From sequence record MW269952.1: 64,000 nt of DNA; one strand, written 5' to 3'. Within the stretch, counting starts at the first letter, position 1. Each line of letters starts with the position of its first letter. The translations under genes and the position numbers were made by a program. Of the stretch, positions 1,390 through 3,001 are shown piece by piece. The DNA comes from Escherichia phage P479. The notes beneath the pieces were generated by a model that ran no database searches, had not been told where the DNA came from, and was given only the letters and a program-made list of their open reading frames with translations.

Positions 1390-1917
1390 ATGAAATTTTT
1401 AACTCCCATTTATCTAACCTTAATGCACGCCTTCGCTGAACGCGCCATTGAACGCTTAGATTCAGACCAATATACCTGGTATGAACCCGCTTCAAGAATG
1501 CAAGAGTTTGGTACTCTGAGACTTGACGGTGGAAGACAAACAGGTAAAACAAGTGCCATTGCACAGTTTGCTGCGGATTGGGTTTCCAAAGGTAATGATG
1601 TGATTGTTATGTCGAGTTCTTCGCATCGCTCACGAGAAATCTGTAATATAATAAAGCGGGTTTCTAAGGCACAACCACATCTTAATGTTGAACGACCTGG
1701 ATTCGTTGTCTATGATACTGTACGCAGTTTCCTTGATGAAGATAATTTCCATAAGTACCGTGGATTGCGTTTTACGCGTCTTTTAATCATTATTGAAGAA
1801 CCTATTCGCCTCCCTGCAATGGATAAGTTCTATGAAGCTTATCAGGTAATGATGAATAAATTTATGTGTCAAGGTGATAAGCCTTTGCCACTGTTCTTTG
1901 TGATAGGAATGCAATGA
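1390..1917 (+). CDS. Hypothetical P-loop NTPase-like protein
   Basis: 175 aa; Walker-A-like GGRQTGKTS and Walker-B-like LLIIIEEP; first of five overlapping ORFs. Confidence 0.45.
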   Translation: MKFLTPIYLTLMHAFAERAIERLDSDQYTWYEPASRMQEFGTLRLDGGRQTGKTSAIAQFAADWVSKGNDVIVMSSSSHRSREICNIIKRVSKAQPHLNVERPGFVVYDTVRSFLDEDNFHKYRGLRFTRLLIIIEEPIRLPAMDKFYEAYQVMMNKFMCQGDKPLPLFFVIGMQ

Positions 1918-2210
1918 TGACTGATGAAGAACTTTTTGAGTTCTGTTATTTCTCACGTAAGGTCCGAAGAGAGGACCTTACTACAAATTTTGAATATGCT
2001 TATTTCTATCCATTAGAATATGTATTCATGTCAGGGCCCTTTAAGGGCTCTCGTTTTAGATGTCATGCTCCAAGTATCCGATTAATGAAACAGGTTCCTT
2101 ACTTTACTCTCGAGTTCATCTCTGGGCCTTGTAAGGGTATTATTACTCGTAGTCTCTTGACTTATGACCAAGAGATTCATATGATTTCTGATTGGAAAAA
2201 ATATGTCTAA
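1914..2210 (+). CDS. Hypothetical protein
   Basis: 98 aa; ATGA overlap with upstream stop; internal repeat SGPFKGSRF / SGPCKGIITRS. Confidence 0.4.
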   Translation: MMTDEELFEFCYFSRKVRREDLTTNFEYAYFYPLEYVFMSGPFKGSRFRCHAPSIRLMKQVPYFTLEFISGPCKGIITRSLLTYDQEIHMISDWKKYV

Positions 2211-2421
2211 ATTGACTATTGAAGGTTCTGACGAAGCTCTGAAAAGATTTGTTGAATGGTTTAATGGACCAGGTGAACAAGACTTTCTGGAAGTCTGGGA
2301 TGGCGGTCGGTGGAATGGTAAAGAAATGATTTACCCGACTACCTATATCTCCGTGCAAGGTTGGACTGAAGGCCTTCGTTTGGTAGAATATGATATCGCA
2401 ACTGGCGAGGAAGTGAAATGA
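2203..2421 (+). CDS. Hypothetical protein
   Basis: 72 aa; overlaps neighbours. Confidence 0.4.
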   Translation: MSKLTIEGSDEALKRFVEWFNGPGEQDFLEVWDGGRWNGKEMIYPTTYISVQGWTEGLRLVEYDIATGEEVK

Positions 2422-2696
2422 TTGAAGACATCAAGGGTTACAAACCACATACCGACGATAAAATTGGTAAAGTAAACGCTATCAAAGATGCCGAAGTTCG
2501 ATTGGGGTTAATGTTTAAAGCTCTGGAAGAAGAGCATGTTACTCATTATATGAACTTAGATACCGAAGAGGTTTCTGAACAAGAACTGGACCAGGCTCAT
2601 GAACGCATCACCCAGATTCGTAATGCAATTGACCGTCTGAAAGAAGCGAGCATGTGGGCGTGTCGTTCCGTTTTCCAACCCGAGGAAAAATACTAA
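2418..2696 (+). CDS. Hypothetical small helical protein
   Basis: 92 aa, predicted helical and acidic; ATGA overlap with upstream ORF. Confidence 0.4.
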
Positions 2697-3001
2697 TGTC
2701 ACAGATTAATTCTGGTTTTGGCTATGAGTTATCAACAGCTTCTCATCGCCGCATAAGCGATTCCAATCCGTTTGGATTCACATCAAAACCCAAGAAAATC
2801 CAGGGGTTAGACGACTTTCAAGAAGTGATTCGTCAAGCTTTCCAGGACTATGCTCGATATCTTAAAGAAGATAAAGACGATTGTCTGGAAGAAGATGAAA
2901 TCGAGTATTATGAGCAACGTCTTGAACAGATTAAGAATTTGCACGCTGTTCGTAATGAAGTTGCCCTAGCAATGAATAAGCTAATTTCTTTTAAAGAGTA
3001 G
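2696..3001 (+). CDS. Hypothetical protein
   Basis: 101 aa from ATG 2696 overlapping the upstream stop. Confidence 0.4.

Follow-up and report, generated by a model that had tools for sequence, protein, structure and literature searches.

The vs.8–vs.3 accessory block of Escherichia phage P479, with two predicted immune-signal sponges and a candidate structured leader RNA

The vs.8–vs.3 genes and their products

A 64,000-nucleotide (nt) stretch of Escherichia phage P479 (MW269952.1; hereafter, the window) carries a chain of five short open reading frames (ORFs) on the plus strand, preceded by a candidate structured RNA. We read the chain as the accessory vs.8–vs.3 block, with two immune-signal sponges, a terminase-related nucleoside triphosphatase (NTPase), and two small proteins, and hold this reading with a probability of about 0.85. 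Gene identities were taken from the ORF listing, direct reading, PHROG, Pfam, PDB, and BLASTP, and sponge functions were transferred from orthologues. The sponges would be directed against the cyclic-oligonucleotide-based antiphage signaling system (CBASS) and, through N7-cyclic ADP-ribose (N7-cADPR), against type IV Thoeris. The genes and the two catalytic motifs of the first product are as follows.

1390..1917, plus strand: vs.8 orthologue, 175 amino acids (aa), predicted single-domain P-loop NTPase of the additional strand catalytic E (ASCE) type
1528..1554, plus strand: Walker A/P-loop of Vs.8, GGRQTGKTS (residues 47-55), with the R-Q-x-G-K-T signature found in T4 gp17
1780..1800, plus strand: Walker B and catalytic Glu of Vs.8, LLIIIEE (residues 131-137), placed by alignment
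1914..2210, plus strand: vs.7 orthologue, 98 aa, with two copies of an h-h-S/T-G-P-x-K-G motif
2203..2421, plus strand: gene in the vs.5 position, 72 aa, phrog_1986
2418..2696, plus strand: vs.4, encoding Acb2, 92 aa, predicted cyclic-oligonucleotide sponge inhibiting CBASS
2696..3001, plus strand: vs.3, encoding TadIV-1, 101 aa, long form, predicted N7-cADPR sponge inhibiting type IV Thoeris

Over its first 6 kb, the window matched Shigella phage SP18 at 97% and other Gaprivervirus-type T-even phages at 90-96% (megablast), and as judged from its sequence it belongs to a Gaprivervirus-type T-even phage. All five ORFs matched a PHROG family (E values of 1.6e-29 to 8.6e-69) and are annotated in SP18 and VR7, so they are real genes rather than chance ORFs. 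Their labels in these two phages are vs.8, vs.7, vs.5 (without a name in SP18), vs.4, and vs.3, and the block lies there between internal-head-protein genes and regB. The original prediction, made from the letters of the window, had listed ORFs of 175, 98, 72, 92, and 101 aa, and both lengths and coordinates were matched exactly. It had also equated the interval with the T4 vs.x genes between regB and denV, which agrees with the T4 order denV-vs.8-vs.7-vs.6-vs.5-vs.4-vs.3-regB, where vs.6 is extra relative to the window. Its naming of the upstream gene as ipIII held in part: the gene encodes an internal head protein, but its identity as IPIII is not demonstrable, the name in VR7 being Ip7-like. 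The order vs.8-vs.7-(vs.5)-vs.4-vs.3-regB is kept from T4 to Gaprivervirus although the proteins are 39-67% identical (BLASTP identity to T4 of 39% for Vs.8, 48% for Vs.7, 64% for Vs.4, and 67% for Vs.3). The gene block is already catalogued, its five genes being annotated orthologues of T4 vs.8–vs.3.

The 92-aa protein is, by sequence, Acb2/Vs.4, a predicted anti-CBASS cyclic-oligonucleotide sponge, and the suspicion that this ORF was of the Acb2 type was borne out. It matched Pfam family PF24729 (Acb2_Tad1_hairpin) over residues 7-87 with 57.7 bits (cut-off, 27; E = 1.3e-15) and the structure of T4 Vs.4 (PDB 7UQ2) over its full length (residues 1-92; E = 2.6e-28). The nucleotide-contacting Tyr8 and the stacking Phe are both retained, F82 of T4 corresponding to F86 here; in T4 Vs.4, Y8A abolishes nucleotide binding (the roles of Y8A and F82C are taken from the Panoptes paper). 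T4 Vs.4 is a hexameric sponge of cyclic GMP-AMP (cGAMP) that raises the threshold for CBASS effector activation, and it also binds 2',3'-cyclic di-AMP (2',3'-c-di-AMP), thereby triggering the Panoptes system. Its gene was expressed mainly at middle and late times in three datasets (2026 preprint). The window protein resembles T4 Vs.4 in length class (92 against 88 aa), in identity, in its slot between vs.5 and vs.3, and in its nearly identical N-terminal 35 and C-terminal 19 residues, which include Tyr8 and the stacking Phe. It differs in the middle of the hairpin (approximately residues 36-72), which is divergent and 4 residues longer in the window protein.

The sponge role of the last gene had not been recognized in the original prediction, and its product is the second published sponge of the block. 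The 101-aa protein matched TadIV-1 of phage UPEC07 (PDB 9WIW) with 97 of 101 residues identical (E = 1.4e-61, PDB sequence search). UPEC07 TadIV-1 has been crystallized, and the product is a dimeric N7-cADPR sponge (Nat Commun 2026, PMC13243611). Residues S16, R18, R19, S21, S23, N24, K34, and E58 are relevant to function through N7-cADPR sequestration, and a basic patch of K57, K60, and H83 likewise matters (PMC13243611). The window protein has all 11 of these residues at identical positions, and the four substitutions relative to UPEC07 (S2A, D61E, N87D, and L91K) fall at none of the tested positions. Among TadIV-1 homologues, activity is confined to long ones (>80 aa), those of some 70 aa being inactive (PMC13243611). 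The window Vs.3 is a long form, with its 101 aa and its N-terminal 32 residues, including the flexible loop, retained; this loop is 9 residues longer than in T4 Vs.3. On this evidence the 101-aa protein is identified as TadIV-1/Vs.3, a predicted type IV Thoeris N7-cADPR sponge. The 9WIW entry bears the name "Endoribonuclease", an annotation spill-over from the neighboring regB, and a label of "endoribonuclease" or "RegB" also lies over the vs.8 match in several GenBank records (e.g., LN881729, MN850590, and OR354874).

The 175-aa ORF had been proposed to encode a P-loop protein, and it does carry conserved catalytic motifs. Across 48 aligned sequences, the most distant of which were 36% identical, Walker A was invariant at G48, R49, G52, and K53, and Q50 was conserved in at least 90%; in Walker B, E137 was invariant, position 136 was always D or E, and I134, I135, and P138 were conserved in at least 90%. 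A C-terminal LPLFFVIGxQ strand was nearly invariant. The AlphaFold2 (AF2) model showed a RecA-like fold in a single alpha/beta domain (predicted local distance difference test [pLDDT] score, 88.6). A word-indexed search returned 57 homologues, none from outside T4-like phages and metagenomes. When 1.84 billion representative proteins were searched exhaustively with the profile, just 63 matched at E < 1e-3, which makes the family a narrow one. A tblastn search placed exactly one copy per record in 1,011 phage records.

By fold and profile, the nearest relative of Vs.8 is the ATPase subdomain of the large terminase gp17, followed by helicase RecA domains. The family profile aligned with gp17 residues 1-360 at 86% probability (E = 5e-6, hhalign), pairing GGRQTGKT with SRQLGKT of gp17 (161-167) and (LL)IIIEE with (M)IYIDE (251-256); the alignment spans gp17 residues 160-265 alone. 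In Foldseek searches of viral models, small uncharacterized proteins of T4-like and jumbo phages ranked before terminases and helicases. Searches of PDB by sequence were not significant with either the single sequence or the 48-sequence profile (best E values, 0.28-0.74), so the kinship with gp17 is visible solely by fold and profile-profile comparison. The match to Pfam Terminase_6N stayed below threshold (14.5 bits; cut-off, 22; E = 0.029). Relative to gp17 subdomain I (2o0h), Vs.8 lacks subdomain II, the nuclease domain, and the portal-binding region, and it has a family-specific N-terminal helical region in addition to the LPLFFVIGxQ strand. We rejected two assignments. Vs.8 is not a large terminase, given the unmatched Terminase_6N model and the missing subdomain II and C-terminal RNase-H-like nuclease. 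Nor is it of AAA+, KAP, or STAND type: the AAA/KAP-type NTPase models put forward in the original prediction did not fit, all Pfam AAA matches being below threshold and fold and profile lying nearer gp17, and the protein appears terminase-like (ASCE) instead. Vs.8 is thus predicted, from sequence and model, to be a relative of the ATPase subdomain I of terminase large subunits, neither a terminase nor an AAA+/KAP protein. Our literature searches found no paper on T4 vs.8.

Less can be said of the two small proteins. Vs.7 matched phrog_2049 (E = 5.8e-46), and its homologues carry the precomputed family PF26834; searches of Pfam (in a copy without PF26834), NCBIfam, PADLOC, and PDB by sequence gave nothing above noise. 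Its AF2 model, built on a 5-sequence alignment, was unusable (pLDDT, 40.5; predicted template modeling score, 0.26). Within Vs.7 there is a repeat (FMSGPFKGSRF and FISGPCKGIIT), also found in T4 Vs.7, that we take to resemble the G-P-x-K-G turns of KOW/SH3-like domains. The protein in the vs.5 position matched phrog_1986 (E = 2.8e-36) and had 13 close homologues at 75-96% identity and no distant ones; Pfam, PDB, NCBIfam, and PADLOC were all without a match. Its likeness to T4 Vs.5 (positions 4382-4558 of our T4 locus, L003) is confined to the first 16 aa, and the C-terminal part of T4 Vs.5 is hydrophobic and unrelated to the window protein. T4 vs.6, annotated as GrcA-like, has no counterpart in the window. 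This mismatch, together with the presence of vs.6 in T4 alone of the two phages, points to the middle of the block as a hotspot of recombination or replacement.

The junctions along the chain overlap by 4 nt (ATGA), 8 nt, 4 nt (ATGA), and 1 nt (TAATG), as expected from the 1-8 nt predicted at the outset, and stop/start overlaps are also present in SP18 and VR7. Translational coupling had been taken to be implied by this architecture, and that implication fails. When genes were modeled crudely as ATG-ORFs over the entire window, overlaps of 1-8 nt occurred at 25 of 114 same-strand junctions (22%), with three runs of five genes (1390-3001, 4072-5476, and 45249-46477). Every downstream start is preceded at 5-9 nt by a Shine-Dalgarno (SD)-like purine run (AGGA, GGA, GAGGA, and GAGGA), and in T4 there are gaps of 36 nt between vs.5 and vs.4 and of 7 nt between vs.7 and vs.6. 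Because the genes have their own SD-like motifs, overlaps are common in the window, and T4 has gaps, coupling of the five genes is plausible but neither required nor implied.

A candidate structured RNA upstream of vs.8

From the upstream stop (1229) to the ATG of vs.8 there are 160 nt with a GC content of 49%, above most of their surroundings. They hold the element that is the one new lead of the locus. Its proposed parts, with a promoter-like match that overlaps them, are as follows.

1228..1375, plus strand: candidate pseudoknotted structured RNA leader, 148 nt, directly upstream of vs.8
1231-1236 with 1281-1286, plus strand: helix H0, crossing P3 (pseudoknot)
1240-1242 with 1335-1337, plus strand: helix P3, covarying, crossed by H0
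1244-1259 with 1265-1280, plus strand: H1, proposed helix
1287-1290 with 1323-1326, plus strand: P2, covarying helix
1291-1294 with 1301-1304, plus strand: core hairpin, loop GUAAUA
1308-1309 with 1316-1317, plus strand: Pd, proposed helix
1344-1345 with 1370-1371, plus strand: P5, proposed helix
1357-1360 with 1366-1369, plus strand: H4, proposed helix
1327..1354, plus strand: candidate sigma-70/T4-early-like promoter match, TTTACA-16-AATTAT (consensus scan, 9/12)

A blastn search found the leader in 987 phage records that span many T4-like genera; in most it is unannotated, and identity at the nucleotide level is generally 80-90%. Its conservation far exceeds that of the flanking proteins, the adjacent Vs.8 being just 39% identical to that of T4. 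It precedes vs.8 in most genera, and its companion is vs.8 or an ip gene, not whichever gene stands upstream. Pattern scans gave 36 viral and 30 metagenomic loci and no match in 185,579 bacterial and archaeal genomes. A covariance model built from an alignment of 27 window-type copies found a single copy in the window (183 bits) and full-length T4-type copies at 75-82 bits; in contigs that are not T4-like it matched the 36-nt core alone, ACCUGUAAUAAGGUCGAGC-N6-GCGGUAA in RNA letters, which is closed by a covarying helix.

Pairs were counted in these 27 copies, aligned with MAFFT, with slid partners and 500 shuffles as controls; the structure was derived from the same, mutually related sequences that score it. 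In the proposed structure 96.8% of alignment cells form standard pairs (at most 46.6% in the slid controls), and eight pairs have changed on both sides (0-3 for slid partners). The 50 compensatory cells were reached by none of the 500 shuffles. As examples, one P3 pair is CG in 17 copies, AU in 6, and GC in 4, and one P2 pair is UA in 9, UG in 9, CG in 5, and AU in 4. Pairs that bridge 95 nt also covary (CG/AU/GC and GC/CG/AU), with no unpaired cell. In a wider, structure-fitted alignment, 18 of 30 pairs showed compensatory changes (4-8 in slid controls). At two P2 pairs, U-G occurs in 12 and 9 of the 27 sequences; since these frequent pairs would turn into C-A mismatches on the opposite strand, the folded strand is the plus strand. 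The fold is visible by comparison alone, the minimum free energy (MFE) of the single sequence being unremarkable (z = -0.09), and RNAalifold on a naive mixed alignment recovered almost nothing, a class-wise alignment being needed. Covariation thus suggests that the leader is a multi-helix, pseudoknotted RNA.

The T4 counterpart (L003, 5786-5913; minus strand of NC_000866, about 64785-64912) sits between denV and the point where vs.8 really begins. Over 84 nt it is 83% identical to the window, with two 2-nt gaps. In GenBank it falls within a 44-residue N-terminal extension of Vs.8. T4 Vs.8 is annotated with 219 aa, and its homologues begin at the equivalent of T4 Met41 (MRTFLTGPYL...); the annotated T4 start is probably miscalled. 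Several metagenomic Vs.8 calls (for example, P0006, P0022, and P0034, of 184-190 aa) have similar spurious extensions, and longer ones of 224-255 aa (P0014, P0016, and P0028) are probably also spuriously extended.

A doubtful alternative to a functional RNA is that the leader works at the DNA level, as a promoter or regulator binding site, or that it is a decayed coding sequence. It would account for the promoter-like match inside the leader, for the T4 and several metagenomic vs.8 calls that run through it as coding, and for the featureless single-sequence MFE. The covariation of fully paired positions 95 nt apart speaks for RNA, as do the U-G pairs seen on the plus strand only, which would be C-A mismatches in a duplex-symmetric site. 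The GTTTACA block of the promoter-like match is kept in window-type copies and absent from T4-type copies. As to coding, indels that are not multiples of three shift the reading frames between phages, so the leader is non-coding, and we rejected both a small ORF and an N-terminal extension of Vs.8 on the same ground.

Searches for known elements gave little. Neither tRNA nor tmRNA was found in the leader, and no terminator-type expression platform after it. Rfam 15 gave no match at E <= 1 over positions 1-4000 of the window except an unrelated weak one at 2155, and on related loci its 4,227 families returned tRNA and group I intron matches elsewhere and nothing on the leader core. Literature searches found no paper with the core sequence. 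The leader resembles phage non-coding RNAs and cis-regulatory leaders in its pseudoknot, covarying helices, invariant unpaired nucleotides, and 5' leader position, and differs from them in lacking an Rfam match and a terminator-type platform; we presume a likeness to the put-type RNAs of HK022 and to riboswitch- or ribozyme-like motifs. If functional, it would be an undescribed structured RNA that is widespread in the best-studied phage family and that in T4 lay hidden beneath the vs.8 start codon, which appears to be misannotated. A location of the replication origin oriE near the block was rejected: a T4 review puts oriE near repEA and oriC near rI.-1.

Possible roles of the block

In the vs.8–vs.3 block as we read it, tightly packed and co-oriented accessory genes between the internal-head-protein genes and regB would most likely be transcribed into one polycistronic mRNA, on which overlapping stop and start codons may keep ribosomes on the message, each gene also having its own putative ribosome-binding site. 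Acb2, presumably a hexamer like its T4 orthologue, would sequester 3',3'-cGAMP and other cyclic oligonucleotides, and CBASS effectors would not be activated. TadIV-1, presumably a dimer like the 96%-identical UPEC07 protein, would trap N7-cADPR with its flexible N-terminal loop and helix alpha-1, and the caspase-like type IV Thoeris effector would stay off. Both sponges would act stoichiometrically on immune second messengers. The RecA-like domain of Vs.8 would descend from, or share ancestry with, the ATPase subdomain I of terminase large subunits and is predicted to bind and hydrolyze NTP, probably with a partner. Gene identity, motif conservation, and fold are observed here and the sponge mechanisms come from the literature; we infer NTPase activity, co-transcription, and coupling.

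Several points weigh against this reading. T4 Vs.4-Vs.8, when singly expressed, did not inhibit type IV Thoeris, while Vs.3 alone did (PMC13243611), so nothing supports the five acting together. Acb2 can be a liability as the trigger of the Panoptes system. Vs.8 falls below every Pfam and NCBIfam threshold and has no part of a terminase beyond the first ATPase subdomain. T4 has non-overlapping junctions and the extra vs.6, so the exact chain and its overlaps are not essential, and since overlap chains are common in the window, the architecture alone tells little.

These last points also feed the rival that survives best, in which the chain reflects compaction only: five unrelated accessory genes, overlapping through the economy of T-even genomes. 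The 22% of overlapping junctions and the three five-gene runs in the window fit this view, as do the SD-like sequence of each gene, the T4 chain broken by vs.6 and gaps, and a Vs.5 that is unlike that of T4 beyond 16 residues. Against it stand the gene order up to regB, kept between T4 and Gaprivervirus despite 39-67% protein identity, and the conserved leader RNA before vs.8 in most genera. We regard compaction alone as possible, at somewhat less than even odds.

We think it unlikely that the block is one counter-defense operon in which Vs.8, Vs.7, and Vs.5 are further, unrecognized immunity inhibitors, with Vs.8, for example, acting as a terminase-ATPase mimic that decoys terminase sensors or as an NTPase that removes a nucleotide signal. 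Anti-defense genes cluster, and two adjacent genes of this block have orthologues that encode proven anti-defense sponges. Vs.8 is a paralogue of the terminase ATPase with intact catalytic motifs, its structural relatives are small uncharacterized proteins of T4-like and jumbo phages, and the block is accessory and differs from one T-even genus to another. On the other side, Vs.8, Vs.7, and Vs.5 have no homology to known anti-defense proteins or PADLOC models, and in T4 all three left type IV Thoeris uninhibited. Guilt by association is moreover a weak argument, most neighbors in the genome being small unknown genes.

More speculative still, and rather improbable, is a regulated counter-defense cassette with two undescribed components, the leader RNA and Vs.8 as a third anti-defense factor. 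The leader may then be a new class of cis-acting phage RNA (riboswitch, ribozyme, processing or antitermination element) that may control or mark counter-defense cargo, and Vs.8 may decoy terminase-sensing immune receptors.

Least probable is a role of Vs.8 in DNA metabolism or packaging, for instance as a gp16/gp17 terminase modulator or helicase-like loader, which would fit its nearest relatives (the gp17 ATPase subdomain, then helicase RecA domains) and the mainly middle/late expression of T4 acb2, overlapping packaging times, but sits badly with a protein of 175 aa that lacks subdomain II, a nuclease, and any region for binding the portal or DNA, and whose gene lies far from the packaging genes and, to our knowledge, has not been reported essential in T4.

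Under the accessory-block reading, two chemically different sponges stand side by side, one for the cyclic oligonucleotides of CBASS and one for the N7-cADPR of type IV Thoeris. Their mechanisms are already published (Acb2 in 2023 and TadIV-1 in 2026). Because the two adjoin in a conserved block, their three uncharacterized neighbors are sensible candidates for an anti-defense screen, and the Vs.8 mini-ATPase, carried as a single copy by each of some 1,000 sequenced T4-like phages, is an especially apt one.

Core-bearing contigs and neighboring genes

The leader core also occurs in phages that are not close relatives of T4. There, ACCTGTAANAAGGTCGAGC-N6-GCGGTAA precedes tRNA arrays by 250-550 nt and shares their strand. 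Core-bearing viral contigs, of 46-140 kb, are L025, L028, L034, L036, L037, L038, L040, and L042. In L036 the core is located between strong promoter-like sites, and in L033 there are two copies in tandem, separated by about 110 nt. Two core-bearing contigs contain group I introns (RF00028, 70-81 bits), at 3115-3418 in L038 and at 6729-7011 in L042.

The genes on either side of the block are the following.

610-873 and 930-1229, plus strand: two tandem internal-head-protein paralogues, phrog_2667
3001-3516, plus strand: regB, longest ORF from GTG 3001, 171 aa
3527-4069, plus strand: vs.1, with an SLT/lytic transglycosylase domain annotated in related records
4072-4431, plus strand: vs (valyl-tRNA synthetase modifier), downstream of regB
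4428-4907, plus strand: tk.4 (macro-domain phosphatase), downstream of regB

Both internal-head-protein paralogues start with MKTYQEFITE, the kind of sequence that typically targets T-even internal proteins to the prohead protease; such proteins are injected, and some counter restriction. A third internal protein, Ip10, is present in SP18 and VR7 and absent from the window. The RegB Pfam model aligns from ATG 3058 (152 aa), which equals the VR7 annotation, and the SP18 version has 165 aa; the regB start is thus called inconsistently among records. The macro-domain protein encoded by tk.4, next to the signal sponges, may be relevant to ADP-ribose-based immunity.

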